In this document: piece after piece, positions 11,697 through 62,032 of the stretch
Position numbering within the stretch: position 1 is the stretch's first letter
How the letters are laid out: each line of letters begins with the position of its first letter
Assembly (NCBI GenBank): GCA_937925845.1
Contig: CALAML010000150.1
Span: forward strand, 8,235 to 72,234
DNA length: 64,000 nucleotides
Reading direction: 5' to 3'
Origin: an uncultured Acidimicrobiales bacterium
GTDB lineage: Bacteria > Actinomycetota > Acidimicrobiia > Acidimicrobiales > CALAML01
Notes under the pieces: model-generated
Told to the model about the DNA's origin: nothing
Seen by the model: only the letters and a program-made list of their open reading frames with translations
Databases searched by the model: none
Translations under genes and position numbers: made by a program

Positions 11697-11745
11697 TAAA
11701 CAGAAGTCTGATCAAACAGAGGTCTGATCAAACAGAGAGCAGATC
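11697..11745. repeat. 16-bp tandem repeat (AAACAGARGTCTGATC, about 2.5 copies) spanning the sigma-factor stop codon
   Basis: ttAAACAGAAGTCTGATCAAACAGAGGTCTGATCAAACAGAGAGCAGATC. It lies between the sigma gene stop (11728) and the 5' end of tRNA-Sec (11663). Confidence 0.8.
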
Positions 11746-12949: not shown

Positions 12950-13273
12950 GTGAGCAACGAAGTAGACGACATCGAAGTGGCCATGGTGACCATGACCTTC
13001 GATACCACCGACATGGAGACGCTTTTGGGCGTGTTGTCGAAGTACGTGGTGATCAGCCGCAGTCAGGATGGCTGTCGCAACATCGACCTGGGGGCGTCGA
13101 CCACCGTGGAGGGTCGGTTCATGATCGTGCAGAAATGGGAGTCGATCGAAGCCCAACAGGCCCACTTCGACTCACCGGCCATGATCGAAATGGCCGAATC
13201 CTGCCGTGGCATCCTGTCGAAAGCACCCACGATCGACCTGATCGAACCGATCACCGTTCACGACCTGAACTGA
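12950..13273 (+). CDS. antibiotic-biosynthesis-monooxygenase (ABM) domain protein
   Basis: At 107 aa it fits the ferredoxin-like ABM pattern: 'VTMTFDT...RSQDGCRNIDL...FMIVQKWESIEAQQAHFDSP'. GTG start. Confidence 0.7.
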   Translation: MSNEVDDIEVAMVTMTFDTTDMETLLGVLSKYVVISRSQDGCRNIDLGASTTVEGRFMIVQKWESIEAQQAHFDSPAMIEMAESCRGILSKAPTIDLIEPITVHDLN

Positions 13274-25764: not shown

Positions 25765-25771
25765 AGCGGCT

Positions 25772-28361: not shown

Positions 28362-28518
28362 GCTGTGCTCTACAACCCGCCTGAGTCTGCGAAACTACGG
28401 TGCCTCTAGCTTACCTTAAAGCGCCCACCGCGTAGAACGGTAAGCTATGGAAAGCTACGGGGTGCGGTTCGCCTGGGAACCGTCTCAGACCTGTCCGAGG
28501 AGACGAGAGGAGCCAAGC

Positions 28519-42502: not shown

Positions 42503-45500
42503 GTGACTGCAGCGAGGGATGGGAGCGCGGACGTGTATCTGGTTTTAGGGGCGCATCGGAGTGGAACATCGGCTGTTGCCGGTGCGCTCGCGGAGTTGGG
42601 CCTGGATGTTGGGGAGCCCTTGCTGGCCGCGAACTCGGCTAACCCCACGGGCTACTACGAGCTTGAGAGTCTGGTCGACTTCCACGAGTCGGCCCTGCGA
42701 ACGATGAACCGATCCTGGGACGACCCGCGCCCGATCCGGTTGCGTTCGCTGGCTCCAGCCGATCGTGAGACGGCCAAGCGCAAGGCTGGCACCCTGTTGG
42801 CCAACACCTTCGGCGACGACACCACCAAAGCCCTGATCAAGGACCCGCGGCAGTGTCGCCTGCTCGGACTGTGGGACAAGGCCCTGGAGGCCCACGACCC
42901 CCACTACATCCTGGTGCATCGGCCCGCCGCCGAGGTGGCTGGCTCGATGGCCAAGCAGTGGGGTACCTCGCCCGAGCGAGCTGGCCTGCTGTGGCTGGTC
43001 CACGTGCTCGATGCCGAGGCTTCGACACGAGGCCAGACCCGAGCGCTGCTCTCCTATGACCAGCTGCTGCGCCAACCTCTCGACACCCTCAAGCATCTCG
43101 GCCGGTCCCTCGGAACCACCTGGCCCATCCCCCCGGCGGCAGCCAAAGATGCTCTCACCACCTTCCTGCAGCCCAAGATGCGCCACCACCGAAGCAACAA
43201 GCCGGACTTCGGCGACCTGGCACCCATCATCGACCAACTCGAGGCCGCCCTGGACCGAGGCAGCGACGACGACACCTTCCACGCGGTGGTCGACCGCTGC
43301 CGAGCCAAGACCGCGGTGCAGCTGGCCAAGCTTGACGATGCCGCCTTCGAGCACGCCAACTCCCTGGCGCGACGCAACGCCGACGAGATCATCCGGATGG
43401 ACGGCCGACTCGATGAACAGTCGGGCTGGCTGAAAACCCTCAGCGGCCAAGTCGAAGACATTGAAGGAAAACTCGCCGGCCAAGGCAACGCCAGCAACGG
43501 AAACGGCAACGCCGGAGGTGGCGGCAACAGCTCATCGTCGGACGAGCCGAGCGAGATCGCCAAGCTGGCTTTCAAGGTTGACGACGCCGCATCGAAGACC
43601 GCCAAGTTCGAGATGCGACTTCGTGAGCTGGCCACCCGCAAGGAAGTCCGCCAGCTCGCCGGCAAAGTCGACAAGCTGACCAAAGCGGCGGCCGACACAC
43701 CAGAGCCAGCGCAGGTTCAACCCGGCAAGAACAACGGAGCGGGCCAGAACAAGGGAGCCGGCAACGGCGCATCGGGACCGAACAAAGCGGCTCCGATGAA
43801 CCTGGTACGCAAGGTGCAACAGCAGCTCAACATCCTCGGCGACCGAGTCGAGTCACTCGAGGCCGCAGGGCGGGTGCGGGCCAACCGATCGGCGGCCGCA
43901 GGCTCGACCGCCGACCTCCAACGCGAGCTCGACGAAGCCCACCGGCTTCTTGGCGAGCACCAGAAATGGCTCCAGCAGCTGGCTAAGGACGTGCGCGAGC
44001 TGCGAGCCGCGGACGTTGAGCAGCAAAAGTGGCTCAAACAGATCTCCCACGACGCGGGCGAGAACTCCGGCCACATCGTGCGAATCCAGCGGGAAATTAC
44101 GCCGACAGCCCCGGCCCCGCTCGTTCGCCGGGTCGCGGCCCGCACCTCAAGAGTGCCCCGGGCCCAAGTAAAGAGATGGCGGGTCAACCGCATGAGAGAT
44201 TTGGCGCCGGCAAACCCTACGATCGGCCAGGAGACAATGGGCAGACTCCTGGCCGGTACCCAACCCAAAGAGCCGACAACACCCCTTCGTGATCTGTCGT
44301 TCGGTCGTTCCGACGAACCGACCCTCTCGATCGTCATCGCCGCCTACAACCAGTTCGACCTGACAGCCCGGGCTCTCGCTTCGATCTTCGAAAACCCAGC
44401 CAGCGCCGAAGTCGAGATCATCCTCGCCGATGACGGCAGCACCGACCCCAACATGGCGCGGTTCAACGACGTACCGGGGCTCACCGTGGTGCGTTCCGAG
44501 GAGAACCGTGGCTTTCTCAAGACGGTCAACGCGGCCGCAGCCGAAGCCAGAGGCGACTACCTCCTGCTGTTGAACAACGACGCCTTCGTAACGCCGGGTT
44601 GCCTCGACGCGATGCTGATGACCTTTGTCGACCAGCGCAACGTGGGTGTGGTCGGCGCCAAGCTCCTGAACCCGAGCGGTTCGGTCCAAGAGGCCGGCGG
44701 CATCGTCTGGGCCGATGGTTCGGCCTGGAACTACGGCCGAGGGCTCCACCCGGAAGAACCGGTTCTGAACTACAGCCGCACCGTCGACTACGTCTCGGGC
44801 GCGGCGCTGATGATCGTGCGTGAGATCTGGGATTCACTGTCCGGTTTCGACCCAGCCTATGCCCCGGCGTACTACGAAGACACCGACCTCTGTATGCGGG
44901 TTAACCAGCTCGACCTGCGGGTGGTTTATCAGTCGGCGGCTGCGGTGGTACACAACGAGGGTTCTTCCTACGGCACCGATGAGACCTTCGACGGCAAGCG
45001 CTACCAGACCGTGAACCAGGCCACCTTCATCGAGCGCTGGGGCAAGGAGCTGAGCAATCGGAGGTCCAACGGTGAGGCTCCGGAGCTCGAAAAGGAGCGC
45101 TCGGTCAACCACCGCACGCTGGTGATCGACGCCCGGATGCTCTACCCCGACCGCGACTCGGGCTCGCTGCGGATGCAGCGCCTGCTGCGAGAGATTGGGC
45201 GTTGCGGATCGAAGCCAACCTTCCTGCCGCTGAACCTCAAAATCGAGGAACCCTATGCCACCGACCTCGGCGCCCTCGGTGTTGAGGTGTGGGGCGATCC
45301 CTTCGTGAAGTCAGTTGAGGAGTACCTGGTTGAGCGCGGTCACCTCTATGACCGCATCGTGCTCAGCCGGGTTGAGGTGGCTGACGCCTGTCTCGAGAAG
45401 GTGCGCCAGCACTGCCCTAACGCCACGGTCGTCTTCGACACGGTCGACCTGCACTTCCTACGGCTCGAACGAGAACTGAACGTACGGGGCTCGCTGGCGG

Positions 45501-46210
45501 GAGGTTTCGACCTCGAACAGATCACCCGGGACGAACTGGCCGCCATCAACGGCGCCGACGTCACCTGGGTGTGCAGCAGCGTCGAACGCGACCTGCTGGC
45601 CGAACGGGCTCCCGATGCCATCGTCGAAGTGGTGTCGAACATCCACGACGAAGAGATCACCGAGACCGAGGTCGAGGGCCGAAAGGACCTGTTGTTTGTC
45701 GGCGGTTTCGAACACCCGCCCAACCTCGATGGCATCCGCTGGTTTGTCGAAGAAGTGTTCCCGGCGATTCGCGCCGATGCCCCGGGCATCACCCTGCACA
45801 TTGTTGGCAGCAGCACCAACGACGAAGTGGTCCAACTCGAAGGCGACGGCATCGTCGTCCATGGCCACGTCGCCGACCTCCGCTCGCTCTACGAGCGCTG
45901 CCGGGTGGTGGTGGCACCGCTCCGCTACGGCGCGGGGGTAAAAGGCAAAGTGACCCAGGCCATGGCCCTCGGAGTGCCGGTGGTGGCCACCTCGATGGCG
46001 GCCGAAGGCCTCGATGCCCAGGATGAGGAACACCTTTTGATCGCTGATGACTCCAGCCTGTTCGCCATGCGGGTCCTGCGGCTCCTGACCGAAGACGATC
46101 TCTGGGTCTGGGTCAGAACCTGCGGCCGCAAGCTGGTCGCCGACCAGTTCAGCCCCGACGCAACCCACGGCGCATTGGACCCCGCGGTAGTGGTAGCCCA
46201 GCAACGGTGA
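42503..46210 (+). CDS. 1235-aa fusion: N-terminal sulfotransferase, ~260-aa coiled-coil/low-complexity spacer, GT2 domain, C-terminal GT4-like (GT-B) domain
   Basis: ST domain 'VYLVLGAHRSGTSAVAGAL' (5'-PSB loop). Spacer with recurring 'QSGWLKTLSGQV / HQKWLQQLAKDV / QQKWLKQISHDA' and Asn/Gly runs. GT2 'LSIVIAAYNQFDLTARAL...IILADDGSTD...LLLLNNDAF'. GT-B 'LLFVGGFEHPPNLDGIRWF...LRYGAGVKGKVTQAMALGVPVVAT'. GTG start at 42503 is tentative. Confidence 0.85.
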   Translation: MTAARDGSADVYLVLGAHRSGTSAVAGALAELGLDVGEPLLAANSANPTGYYELESLVDFHESALRTMNRSWDDPRPIRLRSLAPADRETAKRKAGTLLANTFGDDTTKALIKDPRQCRLLGLWDKALEAHDPHYILVHRPAAEVAGSMAKQWGTSPERAGLLWLVHVLDAEASTRGQTRALLSYDQLLRQPLDTLKHLGRSLGTTWPIPPAAAKDALTTFLQPKMRHHRSNKPDFGDLAPIIDQLEAALDRGSDDDTFHAVVDRCRAKTAVQLAKLDDAAFEHANSLARRNADEIIRMDGRLDEQSGWLKTLSGQVEDIEGKLAGQGNASNGNGNAGGGGNSSSSDEPSEIAKLAFKVDDAASKTAKFEMRLRELATRKEVRQLAGKVDKLTKAAADTPEPAQVQPGKNNGAGQNKGAGNGASGPNKAAPMNLVRKVQQQLNILGDRVESLEAAGRVRANRSAAAGSTADLQRELDEAHRLLGEHQKWLQQLAKDVRELRAADVEQQKWLKQISHDAGENSGHIVRIQREITPTAPAPLVRRVAARTSRVPRAQVKRWRVNRMRDLAPANPTIGQETMGRLLAGTQPKEPTTPLRDLSFGRSDEPTLSIVIAAYNQFDLTARALASIFENPASAEVEIILADDGSTDPNMARFNDVPGLTVVRSEENRGFLKTVNAAAAEARGDYLLLLNNDAFVTPGCLDAMLMTFVDQRNVGVVGAKLLNPSGSVQEAGGIVWADGSAWNYGRGLHPEEPVLNYSRTVDYVSGAALMIVREIWDSLSGFDPAYAPAYYEDTDLCMRVNQLDLRVVYQSAAAVVHNEGSSYGTDETFDGKRYQTVNQATFIERWGKELSNRRSNGEAPELEKERSVNHRTLVIDARMLYPDRDSGSLRMQRLLREIGRCGSKPTFLPLNLKIEEPYATDLGALGVEVWGDPFVKSVEEYLVERGHLYDRIVLSRVEVADACLEKVRQHCPNATVVFDTVDLHFLRLERELNVRGSLAGGFDLEQITRDELAAINGADVTWVCSSVERDLLAERAPDAIVEVVSNIHDEEITETEVEGRKDLLFVGGFEHPPNLDGIRWFVEEVFPAIRADAPGITLHIVGSSTNDEVVQLEGDGIVVHGHVADLRSLYERCRVVVAPLRYGAGVKGKVTQAMALGVPVVATSMAAEGLDAQDEEHLLIADDSSLFAMRVLRLLTEDDLWVWVRTCGRKLVADQFSPDATHGALDPAVVVAQQR

Positions 46211-47001
46211 AGCACAACGTCGTCGACCGGCCCATCTTTGTTGTGGGCTGCCCGCGCTCGGGTACGTCGATGATGCAGTGGGCGCTGCGCACCCACCCCA
46301 ACCTCTGGGGCAGCGCCGAAAGCGACTTCCTGTTACCTCTGCTCGACGGTGCCAACTCGGCCTACAAGGTAGGAACCGCGAGGGGCAAGCTGCACTGGTT
46401 GCCCCGACAGTGGGTGAGCCGTGAGGAGTTCCTGGGTTGGATCGGCGTGGGAATCAACGCCATGTACACCAACCGCTCGAACGGCCAGACCTGGGTGGAG
46501 CAGACGCCGCAGTACACCCTCCACCTCGCCGACCTGGCCATGATGTTCCCCGGCACCCGCTTCGTCGGCATGATTCGCGACGGCCGCGATGTGGTGGCAT
46601 CACTGCGCAACTTCGTAGCCCCGATGAGCCACGGTCAGGCGTGTCGGACCTGGGTGGCCCACACCGAAGCGCTGCTGGCGCACCACGCCGACCATCCGGG
46701 CACTGTCTTGTTGGCCCGCTACGAAGAAGTGGTAGCCAATACCGAAACGATACTTGGCGACCTCTTCCGTGATCTTGACGAAACGCCATCGGATGAAGCG
46801 GTGCACTTTGTCCGCAACGAGCCGCCCATCAACTCCTCATTCGACACCCCGGTTGGAGACCAACCGCGGTGGTCAGACTGGACCGCCGCCGAGCGGGCCG
46901 CCTTCGTCGAGATTGCTGGCGAGCTCCTGGTGAAGCTGCGTTACGAATCCGACCAGACCTGGGTCGACCTCGCTTTGCCCGCAACCGCTGAGTCACACTG
47001 A
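46207..47001 (+). CDS. sulfotransferase (P-loop type)
   Basis: 'IFVVGCPRSGTSMMQWAL' (5'-PSB) and 'MIRDGRDVVASL' (3'-PB). GTGA overlap with the upstream gene. Confidence 0.85.
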   Translation: MKHNVVDRPIFVVGCPRSGTSMMQWALRTHPNLWGSAESDFLLPLLDGANSAYKVGTARGKLHWLPRQWVSREEFLGWIGVGINAMYTNRSNGQTWVEQTPQYTLHLADLAMMFPGTRFVGMIRDGRDVVASLRNFVAPMSHGQACRTWVAHTEALLAHHADHPGTVLLARYEEVVANTETILGDLFRDLDETPSDEAVHFVRNEPPINSSFDTPVGDQPRWSDWTAAERAAFVEIAGELLVKLRYESDQTWVDLALPATAESH

Positions 47002-47559: not shown

Positions 47560-48627
47560 GTGAAGATGGGCGGCGGCGAGATTGAAGAGGGCGAAGACGC
47601 GCAACCCTTTGAGGGCTCCCAGCAGTCCAGGCTGCCCTTTGCCATCGGTGGCCTGGTGGGCCACCTGAGTCGGGGCGAGGGGCATCGAGATCCGGCGCCG
47701 GACGCCGGATCGATCGACACGCTGGTGGAAAAAGAGGACATCCCCGACGACCAGCTGACCGAGCTGAACTTTCGTCCGGTTTCCGAACTCAACACCAGCC
47801 TCTCGATGTTTGTCTGGCGAGCCACCGCGGTGCTGCGGTATCAGCCGTCGCTGGTGCGCCAGATGTTCAAGCGGGACTTCACCGCGGTCTACCGCAGTTC
47901 CAAACTCGGACTCTTCTGGCTGGTGCTCACGCCGCTGGCCACCATGTCCTCGTGGCTGCTGCTTCGCTACAGCGGCGTGGTGCTCGACTCGACCACGGCC
48001 GGAGCTGGAGGAGGCTCCACCGCCGACTTCATCCTGTTGCTGTTGGTGAACATCACCCTGTGGAGCGGTTTCCGCACCGTGATCGGCACGTTGCGCAACT
48101 CAATGCGTCGATCCTCACTGCTGCTTCAGGTTCGCTTCCCTCACGAGGCGGTGCTGTTGCAGAACCTCCTGACCTCCGCAGTGCAGATGGTCATCCCGGT
48201 GATCCTGCTGCTGATCTTCGTGGTGTTGTCGGGCAACGCCGGAGGGCTTGTGGGAGCGCTCCTGTTCCCCCTTGCCGTGATCCCGCTGTACATTGCGGCC
48301 ACCGCCGTGGGCCTCGTGGCCGCCCCGCTGTCGGTGGTGTTCCCCGATGTGACACGGGCCATCGACGTGGTGCTGGGCTTTATGTTTGTGGCCACCCCGA
48401 TCATCTACCAGCGCGAGATCATCGCCGACAAAGAGTTCGTGAACACCGCAGTCGGGTGGAACCCACTCACCCACCTGCTCGGCTGGCCCCGTGACCTCCT
48501 CCTTGGCGAAACCACCACATCGTTGTTGCCGCTACTCGGCAGCATCGGCGGATCCGTCGTGCTGCTGCTCTTTGCCATCCGGCTCTTTTCCGTCGGCTCC
48601 CGGCTCGTGGCTGAGCGGCTGGTCTGA
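47560..48627 (+). CDS. ABC-2-type polysaccharide export permease (Wzm/TagG/KpsM-like)
   Basis: 'FKRDFTAVYRSSKLGLFWLVLTPL' is the ABC-2 N-terminal signature, followed by about 6 hydrophobic helices. The start is uncertain: 47560 (GTG) gives an 82-aa acidic extension, while ATG 47806 gives a typical 273-aa permease. Confidence 0.8.
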   Translation: MKMGGGEIEEGEDAQPFEGSQQSRLPFAIGGLVGHLSRGEGHRDPAPDAGSIDTLVEKEDIPDDQLTELNFRPVSELNTSLSMFVWRATAVLRYQPSLVRQMFKRDFTAVYRSSKLGLFWLVLTPLATMSSWLLLRYSGVVLDSTTAGAGGGSTADFILLLLVNITLWSGFRTVIGTLRNSMRRSSLLLQVRFPHEAVLLQNLLTSAVQMVIPVILLLIFVVLSGNAGGLVGALLFPLAVIPLYIAATAVGLVAAPLSVVFPDVTRAIDVVLGFMFVATPIIYQREIIADKEFVNTAVGWNPLTHLLGWPRDLLLGETTTSLLPLLGSIGGSVVLLLFAIRLFSVGSRLVAERLV

Positions 48628-49841
48628 TGAGCGATCCGGCCATGCCCCTCGACGACACCTCCATTGATGACACCGCCGGTGCGGCGCCCATCGGGCGCAT
48701 GTCGAAATACCGGTCCGACCGCAGCGCACTGGTCGTCGCCCGCCGAGCCCGGGTCGAGGCTCTCGCGGCATCGCGCCAAGCCAAAGCGGAGCACGCCGAA
48801 CTCAAAGCCAGCAAAGCCAGCGCCAAGGCCATTCGCGAGTCACGAAGCCGGCTCGATGCCCGGGTCGCGGAGTACTACCAGGCCCAATCCGAACTGAACC
48901 GGCTTCGGGCCGACACCCAGGAGGGCGAACGAAACCTGGTTGAACTCCAGGAACAACTCGACGATGACGAGTTCACCGAACGCGACCTGGTGGTGGCGCC
49001 GGGCCCGGCGGAAGCCCGGCTCGCCACTATCGACCTCCGCGACGAAGCCGCTCCCACCCCGGCCGCCGAGACGACGACGCCCCTCCTCGAGGCCACCGAC
49101 GTCTCAAAGAAGTTCGCCACCAACCTCGACCAAAGCCTCCGCTATGGGCTGGCCGATCTCGGCCGTCTCGCCATCGGCCGTAAGCCAAAATTCCACGCGC
49201 TTCGCGACGAGGAGTTCTGGGCGGTACGAGACATCAACCTCAAGCTCAACCGGGGCGACAGCCTCGGGATCCTGGGCTCCAACGGTTCCGGCAAGTCAAC
49301 CCTGGTCAAGATTCTGGCCGGCATCCTCGCACCCGATGAAGGCGAGGTAACGGTTCGCGGCCGGCTCACCTCGGTGGTGAGCGTTGGCGCCGGATTTCAT
49401 CCCCACCTCAGCGGGTTGGAGAACATCCGAGTCAACGCCGCGGTGCTCGGTATCGAACCCGACGAGCTCGATCAACTCGAACCCGAGATCATCGCCTTCT
49501 CCGGCCTCGGTGAGCGGCTCTACAAGCCGGTCGGGATGTACTCATCGGGCATGCGTATGCGGCTCGGCTTTGCCGTGGCTACCGCGGTCGATCCCGACGT
49601 CATGATCTTCGATGAGGTGCTGGCCGTCGGAGACCAGCGGTTCAGGAACCGCTGCATCGAACGGATGGCGGAACTGCGCGAAGGGGCAGCGACCGTAATG
49701 GTCTCGCAGTCGCCGGTGATGCTCGGCAACTACTGCTCGCAGGCCATCTGGCTCGATGGTGGTGAAGTTCGCGGGTTCGGCTCGATCGACGACGTCGGCG
49801 ATGCCTACCTCGAAGCCTCAGAGCTCGGCACGGTCCACTAG
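48627..49841 (+). CDS. ABC exporter ATP-binding protein (Wzt/TagH/KpsT-like) with ~155-aa N-terminal coiled-coil extension
   Basis: Walker A 'GSNGSGKST', signature 'YSSGMRMRLGFA' and Walker B 'VMIFDEVLAVGD'. ATGA overlap with the permease gene. Confidence 0.9.
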   Translation: MSDPAMPLDDTSIDDTAGAAPIGRMSKYRSDRSALVVARRARVEALAASRQAKAEHAELKASKASAKAIRESRSRLDARVAEYYQAQSELNRLRADTQEGERNLVELQEQLDDDEFTERDLVVAPGPAEARLATIDLRDEAAPTPAAETTTPLLEATDVSKKFATNLDQSLRYGLADLGRLAIGRKPKFHALRDEEFWAVRDINLKLNRGDSLGILGSNGSGKSTLVKILAGILAPDEGEVTVRGRLTSVVSVGAGFHPHLSGLENIRVNAAVLGIEPDELDQLEPEIIAFSGLGERLYKPVGMYSSGMRMRLGFAVATAVDPDVMIFDEVLAVGDQRFRNRCIERMAELREGAATVMVSQSPVMLGNYCSQAIWLDGGEVRGFGSIDDVGDAYLEASELGTVH

Positions 49842-49851
49842 AAGAAGGCCG

Positions 49852-50877
49852 CTAGTTCTCTGGACGGGGAAGCGGATTTACCTCGCCGGACTCGGAGTAG
49901 CCAAAGGCCTCCAAGCGGGACTTCGCCAACTTCCACGCCGCCCGCTTCTGCCGCGACGAGAGGCTGGTCTGCCACTCACCCACCGCCCCTTTGCGGACCA
50001 CACCCACCCCTTCAGAACCGCGGGGACGGCCGGTGACCCGTTCGAAATCGGTGAGGGCCTCGATGTCGTCGAGCACCGACTGGTCGTCCCGCACGCCAAG
50101 CCAGCTCAACAGGGCCCCCAGAGTGGCGCTGAAGTCATTGGTCAGATCCTCGTAGCGGAGCAGATACAGGTTCGAGTCACGGTGATGGCGGTCGACGATC
50201 TTGGCGACCGATACCCAGTCGCGAAGCAGCTCCTGAAACGGCTTGTGGCCACCGAACCAGGGCATATCCTCCATCAGCTTCTTGTATTGCTGGGCGCTGA
50301 TCGACGCATCGCGACCATCCCTGGTGATCACCACCACGCGGGCGTCAGGGCGCCACTGATGGATCACATCAACAAAGCCAGCCTGGTTCGCCGACTTCAG
50401 TACCACCGCCTGGGTTCCGGGCGACCGGGTGCGAATCAGCGCCAGGAAGTCATCCATCAAGGCATAGGGCGAGCTGGCCGCTTGGCAGCGTCGATAGAAG
50501 CGCCGAACCTCGGCGGGCGGCAGATCGGCGATGCTCAATGGCCGCCGCAGGTCGACCTCAGCACTGTCATCCTCACGGGCGAGGGTGCGCTCCAGCGCAT
50601 TGCCATGGGACCACGCACTCGACTGGAACAGCAGTCGGTTCCGGACCTCTATCTCGGTGAGCGACACCGACTCCCCGCCGCGGTCACAGCAGGCCTGAAG
50701 CAGGCCCAGCTCGCGCACGCCGAGCAGTTCGGGGTGGGCCGAGAGCGCGGCGAGCAGCCACGAGGTCCCACACTTGTACTGACCCACAATGCAGATGGGA
50801 AGTGGGTTGTCGGTGGAGGCTTCCAAGTGAACAGTCGCAGCTAGTGGGGGGACGAACGGTGAACCGCGGCGGCTCAC
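49852..50877 (-). CDS. sulfotransferase (P-loop type)
   Basis: 'ICIVGQYKCGTSWLLAAL' (5'-PSB) and 'VITRDGRDASISA' (3'-PB). Confidence 0.85.
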   Translation of the reverse strand: MSRRGSPFVPPLAATVHLEASTDNPLPICIVGQYKCGTSWLLAALSAHPELLGVRELGLLQACCDRGGESVSLTEIEVRNRLLFQSSAWSHGNALERTLAREDDSAEVDLRRPLSIADLPPAEVRRFYRRCQAASSPYALMDDFLALIRTRSPGTQAVVLKSANQAGFVDVIHQWRPDARVVVITRDGRDASISAQQYKKLMEDMPWFGGHKPFQELLRDWVSVAKIVDRHHRDSNLYLLRYEDLTNDFSATLGALLSWLGVRDDQSVLDDIEALTDFERVTGRPRGSEGVGVVRKGAVGEWQTSLSSRQKRAAWKLAKSRLEAFGYSESGEVNPLPRPEN

Positions 50878-50889: not shown

Positions 50890-52299
50890 CTACCTGGTCT
50901 GGTTTGTGAAGCGCCGCAACTTGCGGTCGAGGGTGCGGGCGGTACGGGTAAACCTCGGCCGGCCGATCAGGTTGTTGCACTCCGATGGGTCGGCGGTGAG
51001 GTCATAGAGTTCCCGCCCACCACCGGCATAGAGGGTGTAGCGCCAGTTGCGCCACCGGATCGAGTGGTTGCCCTCCCAGTGCATGATCGCCGGGCGGGCG
51101 TCGGCCTCCTGGCGGGTGATGCCGACCAGACTCTCACCCTCAAACCCAGCGAAGGTGTTGCTTCCGGCGACATCAAGAATGGTGGGGGCCACGTCGACCA
51201 GGCTCACCGGCTTGGCGAACCGGCCACCGGCCTTCAGCCCCGGCGCTCGAACCAGCAACGGCACCCGAGTGGCCTGGTTCCACAGAGTCGACTTCCGCCA
51301 GTGGAGCTTCTCACCGAGGTGGTAGCCGTGATCGGAGACCAACACGACCGAAGTGTTGTCGTTGTGGGGCGAGGACGCCAGGCTGTCCATGATCTGGCCG
51401 ACCATGGCATCGGTATGGGTGATAGCGGCCAGGTAGGCCTGGACCAGTCGGCGTTGGGCCCGCTGCCGCGTGACCTGTTCGTGCTGGGTTCGGCCGCCGA
51501 AGAGAATCGGCCGTTGGGCCAGTACCCGACCCATACGGGGGACATCGGCCAGGTCGTTCGGGCAGTTGGGCTGAGGGAGCTCAACGCTGCTGATCGGATG
51601 CTGATCGAAAGCCCACTGAGGCACCCGCCACGGCACATGGGGCTGATAGAGGCCCACGGCCATAAAGAACGGGAGGCGAGGGTTGGCGATATGGCGGGAA
51701 AACCAGTTGGCGGTCCGCTGATCCTCATGGACCTCCGAAGGCGGCATGACGCCGACCTCGAAGAACGTCTTTTGGAAGCTCGGATTACTTCGGTTGGCGA
51801 TCTCAGGAAGTTCCCGGTAGTTGCCGGCCACCGTCCAGCGATCGGGGAGGGCGTCATGAAACACCTTGCCCCGGTTGTAGGTGACCCAACCGCGCGATCC
51901 CAACACCTCGGGAATAGTGAGGCGGCCGGAGTTCTGGAGACTGCGGTAGCTCTGGAAGCTCCCGACACCAGTCGACTCAACCCCTGTGGTTTGCGGCGAG
52001 ACGCCCCACATCATCGATGCCCTCGATCCAATGCATGTCGGCACGCTGCAGTAGGCGTTGTCGAACGAGAACGACTCGGCCCGCAGCGCGTCGATGTTTG
52101 GGGTCTTTACGCCCGGATGGCTGTCGAGGTAGCCCACCCAGTCGCGGAGATCGTCGATATAGAGCATCAGCACATTGCGCCGACCCCCACGTCGACCCTG
52201 AGCGCTGGCCTGGCCCGCTTGGCCCAGCGTGACCCCACCCAGGGATCCCGCGGCGGTCGCCGCTGCGGCTCCCCCAATGAACGTCCGCCTGTTAAGCAT
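50890..52299 (-). CDS. Tat-exported sulfatase (iduronate-2-sulfatase-like) with a C-x-G-S-R active-site motif
   Basis: Twin-arginine signal 'MLNRRTFIGGAAAATAAG...ASAQ'. 'NVLMLYIDDLRDW' (metal-binding DD) and 'KTPNIDAL'. Active-site segment 'CIGSRASMMWG' sits where sulfatases have CxPSRxxxxTG. GAAGGTGGAAG RBS. Confidence 0.85.
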   Translation of the reverse strand: MLNRRTFIGGAAAATAAGSLGGVTLGQAGQASAQGRRGGRRNVLMLYIDDLRDWVGYLDSHPGVKTPNIDALRAESFSFDNAYCSVPTCIGSRASMMWGVSPQTTGVESTGVGSFQSYRSLQNSGRLTIPEVLGSRGWVTYNRGKVFHDALPDRWTVAGNYRELPEIANRSNPSFQKTFFEVGVMPPSEVHEDQRTANWFSRHIANPRLPFFMAVGLYQPHVPWRVPQWAFDQHPISSVELPQPNCPNDLADVPRMGRVLAQRPILFGGRTQHEQVTRQRAQRRLVQAYLAAITHTDAMVGQIMDSLASSPHNDNTSVVLVSDHGYHLGEKLHWRKSTLWNQATRVPLLVRAPGLKAGGRFAKPVSLVDVAPTILDVAGSNTFAGFEGESLVGITRQEADARPAIMHWEGNHSIRWRNWRYTLYAGGGRELYDLTADPSECNNLIGRPRFTRTARTLDRKLRRFTNQTR

Positions 52300-52401
52300 C
52301 CACTTCCACCTTCGTCAGCTAATTTGATGTATTCCTGCTGTTCTTTGGGCCAACGTAGTGTAGTCAGCCCCGCAAGCGCATGCGAGATGATGACGTTGCC
52401 G

Positions 52402-53844
52402 TCAGGCTTGCGACAACAAATTCTGCAAGGTGTTCAGGGTTGAGGCGTAGGCCGGATCACCACTCAAGTTGGTGCACTCCGACGGATCGGCCGACAGGTC
52501 GTAGAGTTCTTCGCCCCCCGCCACGTAGGTGGTATAGCGCCACCGGCGCCAGCGAATCGAGCGGTTGCCCTGCCACTGCATCACCGCGGGACGAGCATCG
52601 GCCTGGGCCGTGGTCAGGCCCAGCAGCGTTTGGCCTTCAAAGCCGGGGTGCGGCGATGCGCCGGCGGCATCAAGCACCGTTGGGGCGACATCGATCAGGC
52701 TGACCGGACGACCGGACACCCCGCCCGGAGCCAGGCCCGGACTGCGAACCAACAGCGGGGTGCGGGTGGCCTGCTCCCAGAGCGTCGACTTGCGCCAGTG
52801 CAGCTTCTCACCGAGGTGATAGCCGTGGTCGGAAACCAGCAGCACCGAGGTGTCGTCGCCGTGGGGCGAGTCGGCGAGAGCGTTGAGGAGCTGACCAATC
52901 ATGGCATCGGTGTGGGTGATCGACGCCAGATATGCCTGAACCAGGGCCCGACGCTGACCACTGGCTTCGATCAGATCCTCGTTGGTGGTGCCAAAGAGCC
53001 GGGGTCGGGCGGCCAACTCCACCGCCGTCGGCGGCACATCGGCGAGATCATCGACACAGTTCGGTTGTGGCACCACCACGCCACCGATCGGGTGCTGATC
53101 GTATGCCCACTGCGGCACCCGCCAAGGCACGTGCGGCTGATAGAGCCCGACGGCCATAAAGAACGGCAGCTCCGGCGACTGCAACTGCTGGATGAACCAG
53201 TTCACCGTGGCCTGATCGGTGTGCACCTCGCCGCTCGGCAGCACCCCGTAGTCGAACAGGGTTTGCCAGAAGGTGGGGTTGGAGGTGTCGAGCAACTCCT
53301 GAATTTCGGGGTACGGCGCAGCCACATCCCACCGGTCGGGCAGAGCGTTGTGGAACACCTTGCCGCGGTTGTAGGTGGTCCAGCCCCGATTGGATAACAC
53401 CTCCGGGATGGTGCGGGCCGCCGATGCCACCAGCGGACCGTAGGCCCGGTCGCCTTCGGCAATGGTGGTGTCGACACCGGTAGTGGAGGGGCGAAGGCCC
53501 CACATGGTCGAAGCTCGGGAGCCCAGACAGCTCGGGACGGCACAGAACGCTCGATTAAAGGCAAACGATTCGGCCCGCAGCGCGTCAATATTTGGCGTCT
53601 TTACCCCCGGGTGGCTGCCCATATAGCCGACCCAGTCCCGCAGGTCATCGACGTAGATCATCATGACGTTGCGAGCTGAGGATGGCGTGCAGGCGCTGAG
53701 CACCGGGCCCAAGCCCAACGCCGCAGTGGCTGCGACCGTTCCCCCGAGGAACCGCCGCCGGCTGAGTGCCGGACCAGTTGCGGTGGGTGCGGTCGACCCG
53801 GCCGACGCAAGTATCGATGCCTGGCTGCCTGTTTCGTCCGCCAT
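52402..53844 (-). CDS. Tat-exported sulfatase paralog with a C-x-G-S-R active-site motif
   Basis: 'LSRRRFLGGTVAATAALGL', 'NVMMIYVDDLRDW' and 'CLGSRASTMWG'. About 60% identical to 50890..52299 by eye. Confidence 0.85.
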   Translation of the reverse strand: MADETGSQASILASAGSTAPTATGPALSRRRFLGGTVAATAALGLGPVLSACTPSSARNVMMIYVDDLRDWVGYMGSHPGVKTPNIDALRAESFAFNRAFCAVPSCLGSRASTMWGLRPSTTGVDTTIAEGDRAYGPLVASAARTIPEVLSNRGWTTYNRGKVFHNALPDRWDVAAPYPEIQELLDTSNPTFWQTLFDYGVLPSGEVHTDQATVNWFIQQLQSPELPFFMAVGLYQPHVPWRVPQWAYDQHPIGGVVVPQPNCVDDLADVPPTAVELAARPRLFGTTNEDLIEASGQRRALVQAYLASITHTDAMIGQLLNALADSPHGDDTSVLLVSDHGYHLGEKLHWRKSTLWEQATRTPLLVRSPGLAPGGVSGRPVSLIDVAPTVLDAAGASPHPGFEGQTLLGLTTAQADARPAVMQWQGNRSIRWRRWRYTTYVAGGEELYDLSADPSECTNLSGDPAYASTLNTLQNLLSQA

Positions 53845-53998: not shown

Positions 53999-55066
53999 GT
54001 GGCCACCATCGTGCCCTGCCTGGCCCCGATCGGCCCGCTTGATCCGGAGCCCGAAGCCGCCGATAACACCGGTTCCGGCGTCTTACGACCCGCGCCCGGC
54101 CAAGCCACCATCACCATCTTGTTGTCGACCCACAACGGTGACCGTCATCTTGGCGCGCAGCTGCAGAGCATTGCGGACCAGACCGACCGGGACTGGCGGT
54201 TGCTGGTGCACGACGACGGTTCGACCGACGGGACCAGAGCGGTTGCGGCCCGGTTCTGCGCCAGCGACGAACGCATCGAGATCCTCCCCCGCCTCACCAA
54301 CACGACCAACACCGGCTCGGTGGCCGAGATCTACCTCCGCCTTCTCGCCGTGGTCGAAACTCCCTTCTTCGCCTTCGCCGATCAGGACGACGTCTGGCTG
54401 CCCGACAAACTCGCCAACCAACGGGCCCACCTCAAGGCCGCGGGCCTCGCCGACGGCAACCGGGTGGCCATGGTGGCCTGCGATGCCCAACCCGTTGATG
54501 ACCGACTGCGGCCCAGCGGCGCCACGGTCCGGCGGCGCCAGTCCTATCGCTCGTTCGCCGAAGTCACCCTGGCCCGGCTGTTGATGGCCAACCCGATCCC
54601 CGGCAACACCATCATGGGCACCCGGGCCTTGGCCCAGATGGCCACCGCCGGAGCCGGTCGGGCCCCCATGCACGACTGGTGGGTGACTCTTTGTGCCGCG
54701 GCCCACGATGGCCTGATCGGCATCGAGAGCACCGGCGTGCTCTACCGCCAGCACGATGCCAACGCCTTCGGCACCCCGCCGGGTCTGGCCGATCGCGTGC
54801 GCAACCTGAACCGTCGACCCCTGGTTGAGCGCACCGCAGCGATCCTCAAACCGGTGGCCGCTCAGGCCGCGCTGGCGCGGTCGGTCTGGCCCACGCCACT
54901 GGTTGAGCGCCACGACAAACTGCTCGCCGCGGTAGCGGCTTGTGGGGATGAGGCCACCGACCTGCGCCGGGCCCTCATGACCTGTTGGCTACTTGGCGCT
55001 CAGCTACGGCCCTGGCCCAGCCACCTGGCCCTGATCAACGGGGCCAAAGACGGTTCAGACGCCTGA
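53999..55066 (+). CDS. GT2-family glycosyltransferase (rhamnosyltransferase-like)
   Basis: 'ITILLSTHNGDRHLGAQLQSIADQT...LLVHDDGSTDGT' and 'FAFADQDDVWLPDK' (DxD). Confidence 0.85.
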   Translation: MATIVPCLAPIGPLDPEPEAADNTGSGVLRPAPGQATITILLSTHNGDRHLGAQLQSIADQTDRDWRLLVHDDGSTDGTRAVAARFCASDERIEILPRLTNTTNTGSVAEIYLRLLAVVETPFFAFADQDDVWLPDKLANQRAHLKAAGLADGNRVAMVACDAQPVDDRLRPSGATVRRRQSYRSFAEVTLARLLMANPIPGNTIMGTRALAQMATAGAGRAPMHDWWVTLCAAAHDGLIGIESTGVLYRQHDANAFGTPPGLADRVRNLNRRPLVERTAAILKPVAAQAALARSVWPTPLVERHDKLLAAVAACGDEATDLRRALMTCWLLGAQLRPWPSHLALINGAKDGSDA

Positions 55067-55429
55067 GGCCGCGGCTTCGACAGCCACGTCAAACTCCAAC
55101 AGGGTTGCGCCCATACTGACCGGGCCACCCTCGCTCGGCTTATCCTCGCCGCCGTCGCCCTTTTCAGCGTCGGCCTTTTCGCCCTCGGAAGGTCCGGCAT
55201 GGGCGTTACGGGCCCCTTCGCCGTCCCGCCAGGCGGCGTAGGCCTCTTCGTCGGACCAGCGGGTGTAGACAAACCAGCGGGTCTCCGCCTCGCCGGTGGG
55301 GCGGAGCAACTCAAACCCCTCGAAGCCGGCGACGTCGGCCAGGCCGTCGGCCCGAGCGGCAAACCGCTTGGCGATCTCATCGCCAGCCTGGGGTGGAACA
55401 TTTAGCGCGTTGATTCTCACGATGCTCAT
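55055..55429 (-). CDS. ABM-domain (antibiotic biosynthesis monooxygenase / IsdG-like) protein with acidic tail
   Basis: C-terminal part of ORF 55055..55939, beginning at ATG 55429: 'MSIVRINALNVPPQAGDEIAKRFA...GFEGFELLRP...WFVYTRWSDEEAYAAW'. The upstream part of that ORF is antisense to the NTF2 gene. Confidence 0.75.
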   Translation of the reverse strand: MSIVRINALNVPPQAGDEIAKRFAARADGLADVAGFEGFELLRPTGEAETRWFVYTRWSDEEAYAAWRDGEGARNAHAGPSEGEKADAEKGDGGEDKPSEGGPVSMGATLLEFDVAVEAAASGV

Positions 55430-55447
55430 CAGAAGTAGAGTAACCCC

Positions 55448-56377
55448 ATGGGGGACTACAGCAACGACGAAGTGGCAGCCGCATTTGCCGAGTATCGGCG
55501 TCTCGGGGTGGGAGAACACGACTGGCCCGGCTGGGCCAACCTGTTCACCGAAGAGGCGACCTACATCGAGCATTTCCTGGGCAACTACACCGGACGGGAC
55601 CAGATCCGCGAGTGGATCGTTTCGTGTATGGACGAATACGCCAACATGAGCCTGTGGATGGACTGGTGGGTTGTCGAAGACGACCGGGTCGCCCTCTACA
55701 TCTGGAACAACCTCCCCGACCCGACCGGCACCGGAAAGCGCTACGGCTTCCCCAACACCACCGTGTTGCACTACGCCGGAGAACGTCAGTGGGACTACGA
55801 AGAGGACTTCTACAACCCCGCCGACGCCACCCGGGTCTGGACCGAATGGTTCAACGACGGCGGCCGGCCCGATACCCCGATCGACCGAAGCCTGCAAGGC
55901 ATCGACGACTGGGCCCCCGCGGTGCCGACCACTCCCCATTCACGCGACGAGGTCGAAACAGAGTTCCACGCCTACGCCGCCCGCGGCGCGCTGGCGGTAA
56001 AGACCGGCGACTGGCATCAATGGGCCGATCAGTTCACCGACGATGCCCGCTACCGCGAGCACCACTACGGCACGTTTAACGGCCAGGGCGAAATTCGCAA
56101 GTGGATCACCGAAACCATGGGCCCCTTCCCCGAGATGTTCTTCCCTGTCGACCACTACCTGATCGACGGCAACCGGGTGGTGGCGGCGATCCCCAACAAA
56201 CTGCCTGACCCCACCGGCGGCGACACCGAATACGCCTTCAACGTGCATGTGATCCTGCACTACGCCGGAAACGGGAAGTGGAGCTACGAAGAAGACGTGT
56301 ACAACCCCAAAGAAGCCCACAACTGCGTGGGCTCCTGGGTGAAAGCCGGCGGCACCCCACCGGGCGCGGCCTCCTAA
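55448..56377 (+). CDS. tandem SnoaL/NTF2-like domain protein
   Basis: Two ~150-aa halves with the same pattern: 'ATYIEHFLGNYTGRDQIREWI...PDPTGTGKRYGFPNTTVLHYAGERQWDYEEDFYNP' and 'ARYREHHYGTFNGQGEIRKWI...PDPTGGDTEYAFNVHVILHYAGNGKWSYEEDVYNP'. Confidence 0.7.
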   Translation: MGDYSNDEVAAAFAEYRRLGVGEHDWPGWANLFTEEATYIEHFLGNYTGRDQIREWIVSCMDEYANMSLWMDWWVVEDDRVALYIWNNLPDPTGTGKRYGFPNTTVLHYAGERQWDYEEDFYNPADATRVWTEWFNDGGRPDTPIDRSLQGIDDWAPAVPTTPHSRDEVETEFHAYAARGALAVKTGDWHQWADQFTDDARYREHHYGTFNGQGEIRKWITETMGPFPEMFFPVDHYLIDGNRVVAAIPNKLPDPTGGDTEYAFNVHVILHYAGNGKWSYEEDVYNPKEAHNCVGSWVKAGGTPPGAAS

Positions 56378-59510: not shown

Positions 59511-60530
59511 GTGGCATACCGCGCTGAATACATCTGGATCGATGGCACCGAGCCGACGGCGGAAGTTCGCTCGAAGACCAAGATCATCGACGGGCCGGTC
59601 GTAAAGACCCCGGCCAAGCTCTCGATCTGGGGCTTTGACGGCTCCAGCACCAACCAGGCGACCGGTGACAACTCCGATGTTGTCCTCAAGCCGGTCTTCG
59701 TCTGCCCCGACCCGATCCGCGGCGGCGACAACATCCTGGTGCTTTGCGAGACGCTGCTCACCGAAGACTTGAGCCCGCACCCAACCAACACCCGCGCCGC
59801 CGCCGTCGCCGCTCTCAAGAAGCACAAGAAGCACGAGCCCTGGTTCGGCCTCGAGCAGGAATACACCCTGATGAAGGGCGGATGGCCCTACGGCTTCCCG
59901 ACCCAGGGTTTCCCCGGCCCCCAGGGCCCCTACTACTGCGGCGTCGGCGCGGTGAAGATCGTCGGCCGTGAACTGGTCGAGCGCCACACCACCGCCTGCA
60001 TGGAAGCTGGCCTCAAGATCGCCGGAACCAACGCCGAAGTCATGCCCGGCCAGTGGGAATTCCAGATCGGCCCTGCCGACACCGTCGAGGTTGGCGACCA
60101 CCTGTGGATGGCCCGCTACCTGCTCTACCGCATCGCCGAAGAATACGGCGTTGAAGTCTCCATCGAAGCCAAGCCGATGAAGGGCGACTGGAACGGTGCC
60201 GGCATGCACACCAACTTCAGCACCAAGAAGATGCGCTCGAACTACGACGCCATCGAAACCGCAGCCAAGTCCCTCGGCGGCAAAGCCAAGATCAAGGAAC
60301 ACCTTGCGGGCTACGGCCAGGGCATCGAGGACCGCCTGACCGGCGACCACGAAACCCAGCGCTTCGACAAGTACAGCTACGGCGTGTCCGACCGCGGCGC
60401 CTCGGTGCGCATCCCGTGGCAGGTCCACCAGGACCAGAAGGGCTACATCGAAGATCGTCGCCCCAACGCCAACGCCGACCCGTACGTGGTGGCTACCCTC
60501 ATCACCAACACCGTCTGCGAAGCGCTCTAA
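59511..60530 (+). CDS. glnII: glutamine synthetase type II
   Basis: 'AYRAEYIWIDGTEPTAEVRSKTKII' is the GSII N-terminus seen in Streptomyces/Frankia GlnII. 339 aa. GGAGAAACCAAC precedes the GTG start. Confidence 0.9.
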   Translation: MAYRAEYIWIDGTEPTAEVRSKTKIIDGPVVKTPAKLSIWGFDGSSTNQATGDNSDVVLKPVFVCPDPIRGGDNILVLCETLLTEDLSPHPTNTRAAAVAALKKHKKHEPWFGLEQEYTLMKGGWPYGFPTQGFPGPQGPYYCGVGAVKIVGRELVERHTTACMEAGLKIAGTNAEVMPGQWEFQIGPADTVEVGDHLWMARYLLYRIAEEYGVEVSIEAKPMKGDWNGAGMHTNFSTKKMRSNYDAIETAAKSLGGKAKIKEHLAGYGQGIEDRLTGDHETQRFDKYSYGVSDRGASVRIPWQVHQDQKGYIEDRRPNANADPYVVATLITNTVCEAL

Positions 60531-60565
60531 CAACCCTCGCTTCTGCACGATTGAGACTCGATATC

Positions 60566-60595
60566 GGGGGAGGCGCTTGAGAGAGTGCCTCCCCC
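60566..60595 (+). terminator. stem-loop terminator after glnII
   Basis: GGGGGAGGC-gcttgagagagt-GCCTCCCCC forms a 9-bp GC stem starting 36 nt after the glnII stop. No strong U-tract follows, which is common in high-GC actinobacteria. Confidence 0.6.
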
Positions 60596-60679
60596 GAGTC
60601 GCGTTCGAAACAGCAGCATTTTTGCCGATAGAAGCTCTATCAAAAGAGCGATGGGCCCCGCCAAGAAAGGCCACCGCCG

Positions 60680-62032
60680 GTGACACGTGAAACAAAGAGG
60701 GAGACCGACTACGTTCTCCGCAAAGTTGAAGAGCGTGGCGTACGGCTCGTTCGCCTGTGGTTCACCGACGTGCTCGGTCAACTCAAATCCGTGGCCATCT
60801 CCCCGGCCGAACTCGAGAACGCCCTCGAAGAGGGCATGCAGGTCGACGGCTCCGCCATCGATGGCTTCAGCCGCATCCAGGAAAGCGATGTGCTGCTGAA
60901 GCCCGACCCCGAAACCTTCGAAACACTGCCCTGGGGCGACCCCAACGAGGTGTCGGCCCGCATGTTCTGCGACGTGTTGACCCCAACCGGCAACCCGTTC
61001 GAAGGCGATCCCCGTCAAGTGCTGCGCCGCAACCTCGACCGGGCCCACGACCTCGGCTACAGCTTCCTCGTAGCCCCGGAGATGGAGTACTTCTACTTCG
61101 CCAACGGCGACCCCACCAGCCCGCCCCAACCCCTCGACAGCGGCTCCTACTTCGACCTCACCACCCTCGACGTCGCCGACGACATCCGCAAACGCACCCT
61201 CGGCATGCTCGAGGCGATGGGCATTCCGGTCGAATACTCCTTCCACGAAGACGCCCCCAGCCAGCACGAGATCGACCTGCGTTACACCGACGCTCTCACC
61301 ATGGCCGACAACGTGATGACCTTCCGGCTCACCGTTCGCGAAATCGCCTACGAGCGCGGGGCCTACGCCACCTTCATGCCCAAGCCCCTCTCAGGCGTGC
61401 AGGGCTCCGGCATGCACACCCACCTGTCGCTCTTCGACACCACCGGTGAAAACAACGCCTTCCATGACCCCAGCACCGAGCTTGGCCTCTCGACCGTTGG
61501 CCGCCAGTTCATCGCCGGCCTCCTGGTCCACGCCCCCGAAATCACCGCTGTCACCAACCAACTAGTCAACTCCTACAAGCGGCTGATCGTCGGCTACGAA
61601 GCACCCACCTACGTGAGTTGGGCCCGCAACAACCGATCGGCTCTGGTGCGAGTACCGATCACCAAGCCCGAAAAGTCGACCTCCACCCGCATCGAATACC
61701 GAGCCCCCGACCCAGCATGCAACCCCTACCTGGCCTTCTCCTGCATGCTTGCCGCCGGCCTCAAAGGCATCGAAGAGGGCTACGAACTCGGGCCCGAATC
61801 ATCGAACAACGTCTTCGAGATGAGCGACTCCGAGCGCCGCGACGCTGGCATCGAACCACTGCCCCAGTCGCTCGATGCCGCGCTGCGAGCCATGGAAGGC
61901 TCCAGCCTCGTGGCCGAAACCCTCGGGGAACACATCTTTGAATGGTTCCTGCGAAACAAGAGGGCCGAGTGGCGCGACTACAAAGCCCATGTGAGCCAGT
62001 TCGAACTCGATCGCTACCTCCAGGCCTGGTAG
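60680..62032 (+). CDS. glnA: glutamine synthetase type I (GlnA/GlnA2-like)
   Basis: 'VRLWFTDVLGQLKSVAI', 'VDGSAIDGF', 'FHEDAPSQHEIDL' and 'GSGMHTHLSL'. 450 aa. Confidence 0.9.
   Translation: MTRETKRETDYVLRKVEERGVRLVRLWFTDVLGQLKSVAISPAELENALEEGMQVDGSAIDGFSRIQESDVLLKPDPETFETLPWGDPNEVSARMFCDVLTPTGNPFEGDPRQVLRRNLDRAHDLGYSFLVAPEMEYFYFANGDPTSPPQPLDSGSYFDLTTLDVADDIRKRTLGMLEAMGIPVEYSFHEDAPSQHEIDLRYTDALTMADNVMTFRLTVREIAYERGAYATFMPKPLSGVQGSGMHTHLSLFDTTGENNAFHDPSTELGLSTVGRQFIAGLLVHAPEITAVTNQLVNSYKRLIVGYEAPTYVSWARNNRSALVRVPITKPEKSTSTRIEYRAPDPACNPYLAFSCMLAAGLKGIEEGYELGPESSNNVFEMSDSERRDAGIEPLPQSLDAALRAMEGSSLVAETLGEHIFEWFLRNKRAEWRDYKAHVSQFELDRYLQAW

Follow-up and report, generated by a model that had tools for sequence, protein, structure and literature searches.

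A 64-kb stretch of DNA from an uncultured Acidimicrobiales bacterium (contig CALAML010000150.1, positions 8,235 to 72,234; hereafter the window) carries two neighboring genes for formylglycine-type (S1) sulfatases, which we call SulfA and SulfB. A sequence-only reading of this DNA had proposed that both proteins have Gly in place of the conserved Pro of the formylglycine motif, and had suggested either that they mature by a non-canonical route or that their catalytic nucleophile has changed. The best named matches of the NadE encoded in the window are Acidimicrobiales metagenome-assembled genomes, at 63–65% identity, which places the DNA in that order. Translation of the genes (Table 1) gave exactly the motifs that it had described, CIGSRASMMWG and CLGSRASTMWG, together with 'DDLRDW' in both proteins. 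SulfA and SulfB are 63% identical to each other, and both match the Pfam Sulfatase family (PF00884; cut-off 25 bits, SulfA 141.9, SulfB 140.5) and the SGSH_C C-terminal subdomain. Compared to their orthologs in a related organism (79% identical for SulfA, L082; 85% for SulfB, L083), the ratio of nonsynonymous to synonymous substitution rates (dN/dS) was 0.11 for SulfA and 0.08 for SulfB, with synonymous sites saturated (dS ~1.4–1.5). Because these ratios are so low at this divergence and the Gly codons are kept, the sequences indicate functional proteins under strong constraint.

By both sequence and predicted structure, the closest relatives of SulfA were true sulfatases. An AlphaFold2 model of SulfA, built on an alignment of its clade, had a mean predicted local distance difference test score (pLDDT) of 86, and the top Foldseek match was 6HHM, the S1_7 ulvan xylose-2-sulfatase FA22070 of Formosa agariphila, with PsS1_NC, choline sulfatase, and iduronate-2-sulfatase (IDS) also among the best matches, at template-modeling (TM) scores of 0.61–0.73. 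The top 50 matches included S1 sulfatases of many subfamilies and related phosphonate monoester hydrolases (PMH), at a probability of 1.00. A clade profile searched against the PDB found 6hhm at an E-value of 5e-64 and IDS at 7e-48. These two S1_7 enzymes (6HHM and the human IDS structure 5FQL), the best matches of SulfA overall with TM scores of ~0.67–0.70, share with SulfA and SulfB the two-subdomain fold and the catalytic set, in which both the spacing of K-x-x-H and the metal site 'SDHG' are alike. SulfA and SulfB differ from them in being only ~25% identical, in having Gly for Pro at position +2 of the motif and Trp for Thr before its final Gly, in carrying leaders for twin-arginine translocation (Tat), one of them of Tat-lipoprotein type, and in being encoded in a biosynthetic operon rather than belonging to a catabolic locus or a lysosomal pathway. 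Identity to any solved sulfatase was ~25%, and the best PDB matches were S1_7 members at 22–25%. Membership of S1_7 is defined by the SulfAtlas subfamily hidden Markov model or by at least 40% identity to members; on sequence and modeled structure, S1_7 appears to be the nearest subfamily of the SulfA/SulfB lineage. The second-best structural neighbor was choline-O-sulfatase BetC (S1_12; 6FNY and 6G5Z; TM 0.6–0.69), which, unlike SulfA and SulfB, has a canonical CxPxR; the NCBIfam choline-sulfatase model matched only partially, at 161 bits against an equivalog cut-off of 433, and no choline or betaine genes lie near SulfA and SulfB. NCBIfam also reported weak similarity to PehA, a phosphoric/sulfuric ester hydrolase, but in both sequence and structure comparisons PMH-type enzymes scored far below true sulfatases.

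In phmmer and profile alignments, the Cys of CIGSR pairs with the formylglycine Cys of 6HHM ('CAPSRMSTLTG'). Both C89 and R93 of SulfA, and likewise C106 and R110 of SulfB, align with the Cys and Arg of 'CAPSR', and these two residues are invariant in the 48 clade members. Gly thus occupies position +2 of the aligned formylglycine motif in both proteins, as the sequence-only reading had it. We looked in both proteins and their alignments for a normal CxPxR elsewhere, with another Cys or Ser as the true nucleophile, and found none. The metal ligands (the N-terminal D-D and the D-[NHQ] of 'SDHG') and the catalytic Lys and His residues are present, and the IDS catalytic set is matched in full (D49, D50, C89, R93, K145, H148, H221, D323, H324, and K336 in SulfA numbering). 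All ten residues are invariant in the seven-member subclade to which the window proteins belong, and in the 48-member clade all are invariant except H148, which is nearly so, and H324. Judged by sequence and by the model, SulfA and SulfB are therefore most likely catalytically competent, formylglycine-dependent S1 sulfatases. The proposal of non-canonical maturation or a changed nucleophile found no evidence in its favor: the residues that support formylglycine are kept, and CxGxR recurs across a lineage in which Ala, Gly, and Ser alternate at +2.

The updated SulfAtlas catalytic-site pattern requires [CS]-x-[PA]-x-R and a terminal [TASL]-G, and among the 4058 S1 sequences of the founding SulfAtlas paper, 87% had Pro at +2, 369 had Ala, and each other residue accounted for <1% (PMC5066984). 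Both paralogs break this pattern twice, with Gly at +2 and with W-G at the end of the motif, where the Trp is nearly invariant in the clade. Among 119 close homologs, +2 was Ala in 57, Pro in 31, Gly in 28, and Ser in 3; among 150 representatives clustered at 50% identity, the counts were 129 for Pro, 19 for Ala, 9 for Gly, and 7 for Ser. All seven members of the window subclade (P0001–P0007) have Gly, and it is kept in both paralogs and both related-organism orthologs despite saturated synonymous sites, so its retention is not a matter of chance. A large gammaproteobacterial clade with C-I-A-S-R...W-G contains at least five separate Ala-to-Gly switches, one of them between proteins that are 85.5% identical (P0023 and P0027), and a separate C-V-G-S-R...M-G clade has Gly throughout. 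CxGxR also occurs in Halieaceae, Nannocystales, and the cultured Ideonella paludis and I. azotifigens. Our literature searches (CxGxR, CTGSR, and similar terms) found no description of a CxGxR sulfatase; the variant is thus common in its family, as the earlier reading had allowed that it might be, but is not already characterized. The simplest reading of these sequences is that +2 tolerates any small residue and that the maturase of the Ala forms would also serve the Gly forms. Within an uncharacterized S1 lineage, the Gly variant thus recurs and is maintained by selection; the hallmarks of this lineage are a small +2 residue (Ala more often than Gly, and Gly more often than Ser), Trp at +9 in place of the Thr of 'TG', and export as Tat-lipoproteins. 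Gly at +2 is, by these counts, rare overall and common in its own lineage, and it would require neither new chemistry nor a dedicated maturase.

Further members of the family depart from the canonical form in other ways. Three sister-clade sequences (P0062, P0067, and P0068) retain Pro at +2 and Trp at +9, but their nucleophile Cys is replaced by Thr or Ser (TLPAR, TLPSR, and SLPSR); in the Thr forms formylglycine would be impossible, and these proteins may be inactive or work differently. A third class of Gly-type paralogs, with the motif CPGSRAST[AI]WG, a Tat motif, and a lipobox, is 53–58% identical and occurs in L084, which comes from the sequencing run of the window and has a G+C content of 64%, and in L101, from the same Joint Genome Institute (JGI) sample as L082; its neighbors are unannotated and not syntenic. 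Many family members, including the representatives P0256–P0260, P0265, P0284, and P0398, are 900–1950 aa long with 2–5 sulfatase-domain matches, and are thus tandem or multidomain proteins.

The Tat leaders proposed earlier were recovered on both proteins. SulfA scored 18.1 bits with NCBIfam TIGR01409 (cut-off 16.7) and 21 bits with Pfam TAT_signal, marginally under the cut-off of 22.7; its R4 and R5 are nearly invariant across the clade. SulfB scored 16.6 bits with TIGR01409, marginally below the cut-off. Directly after its Tat region, SulfB has a lipobox that fits [LVI][ASTVI][GAS]C, a pattern match that the earlier reading had not included, and SulfB is therefore predicted from sequence to be a Tat-dependent lipoprotein. 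A Tat motif followed by a lipobox is usual in the W-G clade, being present in most members. We also considered Tat export as the cause of the Gly substitution and rejected it: the presence of Tat does not correlate with Gly, because canonical CNPSR relatives have Tat leaders as well and leaders of the Sec type are found in the CVGSR clade.

The genes for SulfB, SulfA, and a cytoplasmic sulfotransferase are co-oriented, with intergenic gaps of 102 and 12 nt, and on this arrangement appear to form a single operon. A promoter and terminator scan of the operon gave no signal exceeding shuffled sequence, and terminator-like sites were likewise in no excess. The operon converges on the genes of a Wzm/Wzt-type ATP-binding cassette (ABC) exporter, whose orthologs in L082 are 77% and 72% identical. 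In a related organism from another sample (L082/L083), the order of glycosyltransferase, sulfotransferase, permease, ATPase, sulfotransferase, SulfA, and SulfB is kept at 67–85% identity. Pfam scans of the neighboring genes revealed no glycoside hydrolases, lyases, or uptake systems near the sulfatases. The link to sulfation is thus stronger than first noted, and the coupling of the sulfatases in one operon with a sulfotransferase, beside an exporter, suggests that a bacterial sulfated polymer is edited after its export.

Table 1. Coordinates of the sulfatase genes, their motifs and leaders, and other genes of the glycan locus, numbered from the first nucleotide of the window.
Feature	Coordinates	Strand	Description	Evidence
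SulfA	50890-52299	minus	469 aa; S1 sulfatase, paralog of SulfB; predicted soluble protein exported by Tat	PF00884 141.9 bits
SulfA formylglycine motif	52003-52035	minus	CIGSRASMMWG; C89, G91, R93, W98, G99	translation
SulfA Tat signal peptide	52198-52299	minus	MLNRRTFIGG..., RRTFIGG; likely cut after ASA (ASA/Q)	translation, TIGR01409
SulfB	52402-53844	minus	480 aa; sulfatase of the formylglycine type (S1); predicted lipoprotein exported by Tat	PF00884 140.5 bits
SulfB formylglycine motif	53497-53529	minus	CLGSRASTMWG; C106, G108, R110, W115	translation
SulfB leader	53689-53844	minus	Tat motif SRRRFLGG, then lipobox L-S-A-C (Cys52)	translation
Sulfotransferase (Sulfotransfer_3/1)	49852-50877	minus	third gene of SulfB-SulfA-sulfotransferase operon, no signal peptide	Pfam E 1e-16; L082 ortholog 69%
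Wzm/Wzt-type ABC exporter	47560-49841	plus	ABC-2 permease and ATPase, convergent with sulfatase operon	Pfam; NCBIfam TagH, galactan Wzt
Second sulfotransferase (Sulfotransfer_3)	46207-47001	plus		Pfam E 1.7e-23; L082 ortholog 67%
GT2-GT4 fusion glycosyltransferase	42503-46210	plus	1235 aa, likely glycan polymerase	Pfam; L082 ortholog 68-78%
GT2 glycosyltransferase	53999-55066	plus	divergent from SulfB	Pfam E 3.7e-14; same arrangement in L001
rSAM1 and rSAM2	28447-29625 and 29607-30698	plus	tandem radical-SAM/SPASM-like pair, 53% identical to each other	
PhyH genes beside rSAM pair	30695-32196 and 33051-34070			

As the earlier reading had stated, the window holds no gene for a formylglycine-generating enzyme (FGE): none of ~60 candidate open reading frames (ORFs) scanned in its 64 kb matched the FGE domain PF03781, and the ORF at 11728-12792, included in the scan, encodes a sigma-70 factor. 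A regular-expression search for FGE-like motifs over all compared loci also gave no match, but the search was crude and its result is uninformative. No gene for an anaerobic sulfatase-maturating enzyme (anSME) was seen adjoining the clade members examined. The anSME handles Cys-type sulfatases with CXAXR (PMC2459300), and the FGE of Mycobacterium tuberculosis acts on both CTPSR and CTAGR; human FGE, in contrast, requires Pro (PMC12054377). Like SulfA and SulfB, Cys sulfatases of the CxAxR type, such as the one of Clostridium perfringens that is matured by anSMEcpe, and the CTAGR aldehyde tag converted by M. tuberculosis FGE combine a small +2 residue with the conserved Cys and Arg, and because they are converted, maturases evidently tolerate loss of the Pro (PMC2459300, PMC12054377). 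SulfA and SulfB differ from them in having Gly, for which we found no published conversion data. Given that M. tuberculosis FGE tolerates Ala at this position, the most economical candidate for the maturase would, by analogy, be an actinobacterial FGE whose gene lies outside the window, with an anSME as the alternative.

The sequence-only reading had also pointed to two radical S-adenosylmethionine (radical-SAM) enzymes in the same locus as possible sulfatase maturases. These proteins, rSAM1 and rSAM2, had no anSME match at E ≤ 1e-3 in NCBIfam, where the best hits, to a W-cofactor maturase and MoaA, were far under cut-off, and single-sequence and profile searches of the PDB returned AbmM, BtrN, NifB, MoaA, and BlsE with no anSME at E ≤ 1. 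The structural model (pLDDT 90) was closest in Foldseek to BlsE, BtrN, and DesII, enzymes that act on sugars or sugar nucleotides, with anSMEcpe in 31st place. The family (682 homologs at ~50% identity) has ten invariant Cys residues, seven of them beyond CX3CX2C, enough for two auxiliary clusters. The conserved neighbors of its members encode PhyH dioxygenases dependent on iron and 2-oxoglutarate, methyltransferases of the TylF/CmcI/FkbM type, GT2 glycosyltransferases, and a B12-dependent radical-SAM protein, and in three of four contexts (L091–L094 and a JGI contig) no sulfatase lies within 10 kb. The fourth, L088, has a gene for a sulfatase of 662 aa that is immediately followed by a homolog of rSAM2 (48.5% identity), and a sulfatase of the W-G clade is encoded 6 kb from this homolog; the adjacent 662-aa sulfatase has a canonical CTPSR. 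Conversely, no match to the locus radical-SAM proteins was found at the other sulfatase loci examined (L002–L090), up to 10 kb on each side as far as the contigs reach. Family models, fold neighbors, and genomic context thus led us to reject this pair as sulfatase maturases. We conclude from sequence and modeling that the substrates of rSAM1 and rSAM2 would instead be sugars, and that in the left half of the locus the pair and the PhyH genes probably form a conserved sugar-tailoring cassette.

That left half (18145-47001) is 40–58% identical to L094:1-13500, part of a 2.5-Mb Acidimicrobiia-like contig, and because no sulfatase lies nearby there, the locus looks like two joined modules. The genes common to the window and L094 encode a 1096-aa fusion of methyltransferase, GT2, and methyltransferase domains, two Sulfotransfer_2-like proteins, a hexapeptide acyltransferase, PhyH, and the radical-SAM protein. 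An 888-aa B12-binding radical-SAM protein encoded within the glycan locus (23143-25809, minus strand) scored 251 bits, under the cut-off, against the cobalamin-dependent C-methyltransferases of the KedN5 family; a C-methylated sugar is likely. A HipA-family toxin kinase gene (21466-22764, minus strand) lies amid the glycan-modification genes, and a 515-aa protein that joins a PhyH dioxygenase domain to a UvrC-like helix-hairpin-helix C-terminal region (38879-40426, minus strand) is odd for a glycan locus. Small ORFs with an antibiotic biosynthesis monooxygenase (ABM) domain occur at 55055-55450 (minus strand) and 12950-13273 (plus strand); the former lies between GT2_355 and a gene with a double SnoaL domain, and is kept in L001. 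At 59511-62706, two genes of the glutamine-synthetase family (339 and 450 aa) and then a GlnR/OmpR-type regulator form a housekeeping nitrogen block, which is the right edge of the glycan locus.

Taking these results together, we think it somewhat probable that SulfA and SulfB are ordinary formylglycine sulfatases that depend on a general maturase with its gene outside the window, and that they edit an exported sulfated glycan. Their precursors would be made in the cytoplasm, where Cys89 and Cys106 would be converted to formylglycine by this maturase, likeliest an actinobacterial copper FGE or alternatively an anSME; each protein would then fold with its metal and leave through the Tat pathway, after which a lipid would anchor SulfB to the outer side of the membrane and SulfA would be released. 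The locus would assemble a methylated, sulfated glycan in the cytoplasm with its GT2 and GT4 enzymes and four sulfotransferases of the type that uses 3′-phosphoadenosine-5′-phosphosulfate (PAPS), and export it via Wzm/Wzt. Outside the cell, SulfA and SulfB would strip particular sulfate esters from this glycan, an editing of sulfation after export. Several points weigh against this explanation. The motif has lost its core Pro as well as its auxiliary Thr, which could weaken recognition by standard FGE; our literature searches turned up no test of any FGE or anSME on a motif with Gly at +2; and an FGE or anSME outside the window is an assumption. In addition, clade members in Gammaproteobacteria mostly sit among genes unrelated to glycan synthesis (L087 and L089), so the biosynthetic association appears to be specific to the window subclade rather than a family trait. 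One gammaproteobacterial member does adjoin GT2 and GtrA genes: in L085:10001-14522, the gene for a CIGSR sulfatase overlaps by one base an unannotated ORF of 570 aa, which is followed by GT2 and GtrA, an arrangement that by analogy recalls periplasmic glycan-modification trios.

The alternatives differ in who matures the sulfatases, what they act on, or whether they are sulfatases at all. The same enzymes and export route could be combined with an anSME-type maturase elsewhere in the genome, the non-Pro motifs then marking anSME clients with no involvement of FGE. Avoidance of Pro at +2 by the entire clade fits this idea, as does the assignment of Cys sulfatases of the CXAXR type to anSME (PMC2459300), but many clade members come from Halieaceae, which are marine aerobes, and from aerobic Ideonella isolates, actinobacterial FGE takes Ala at +2 (PMC12054377), and no clade member examined has an anSME gene beside it; we consider an anSME route rather unlikely. 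A maturation system dedicated to CxGxR, with the radical-SAM/SPASM-like enzymes of the locus as a new type of sulfatase maturase, could draw on the presence of two such paralogs and two sulfatases within one locus, on the L088 arrangement, and on the Cys residues available for auxiliary clusters. Given the lack of anSME matches, the sugar-enzyme folds, the three contexts without a sulfatase, the canonical motif of the L088 neighbor, and the absence of radical-SAM matches at the other sulfatase loci, this is the least probable of the explanations weighed here.

Altered chemistry would take several forms: the unconverted Cys could act directly, or the proteins could hydrolyze phosphonate or phosphate esters, be transferases within the alkaline-phosphatase superfamily, or lack activity and serve for binding. 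The departure of the motif from the curated SulfAtlas pattern at two positions, the sister sequences with Thr or Ser for Cys, and the weak PehA similarity would be compatible with such a change. However, every IDS residue that positions and activates formylglycine or binds sulfate is kept, the closest relatives in sequence and structure are true sulfatases with PMH-type enzymes far lower, and both paralogs are under strong purifying selection, which makes a change of chemistry very unlikely. Finally, SulfA and SulfB could be scavenging or catabolic enzymes for foreign sulfated glycans whose placement in a biosynthetic locus is incidental. Sulfatases characterized so far are catabolic (PMC9825549), a fact that counts both for scavenging and against the editing we favor, and the unrelated neighborhoods of the gammaproteobacterial members point the same way. 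Against scavenging, the sulfotransferase gene starts 12 nt from the SulfA stop codon on the same strand, the order of glycosyltransferase, sulfotransferase, ABC exporter, sulfotransferase, SulfA, and SulfB genes is kept even though dS is saturated, and no hydrolases, lyases, or uptake systems flank the pair. We judge scavenging improbable. The earlier preference for remodeling of a self-made glycan over scavenging accordingly gained support from operon structure, synteny, and the lack of flanking hydrolases, and it is still inferential.

The animal enzymes Sulf1 and Sulf2, extracellular heparan-sulfate 6-O-endosulfatases of the S1 family, edit a polymer that PAPS-dependent sulfotransferases have sulfated inside the cell, and they provide a working analogy for the role of SulfA and SulfB, one drawn from gene order only. 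Sulf1 and Sulf2 are eukaryotic, have a large hydrophilic insert, and are secreted through the endoplasmic reticulum, where their FGE resides; we know of no demonstrated bacterial counterpart. In a bolder version of our reading, a maturase of altered specificity, which would be a distinct FGE variant or a 'third' bacterial maturation system, serves the sulfatases with a small +2 residue and Trp at +9, and in this Acidimicrobiales lineage the sulfotransferase and the Tat-exported pair write and then, after export, erase sulfation on a self-made surface glycan as the prokaryotic counterpart of Sulf1/Sulf2. We regard this combination as doubtful.

For annotation, an entire lineage of wide distribution escapes the curated PROSITE and SulfAtlas signatures ([PA] at +2, final [TASL]-G), and both pattern-based annotation and the design of 'aldehyde tags' underestimate what maturases accept. 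The occurrence of CxGxR sulfatases in cultured Ideonella makes the question accessible in the laboratory. The operon coupling is more interesting than the Gly variant itself: the exported sulfatase pair shares its operon with a sulfotransferase, lies beside a glycan exporter, and is strongly constrained by purifying selection. This arrangement points to the editing of a bacterial sulfated polymer after export, which, if true, would be a role so far undemonstrated in prokaryotes.

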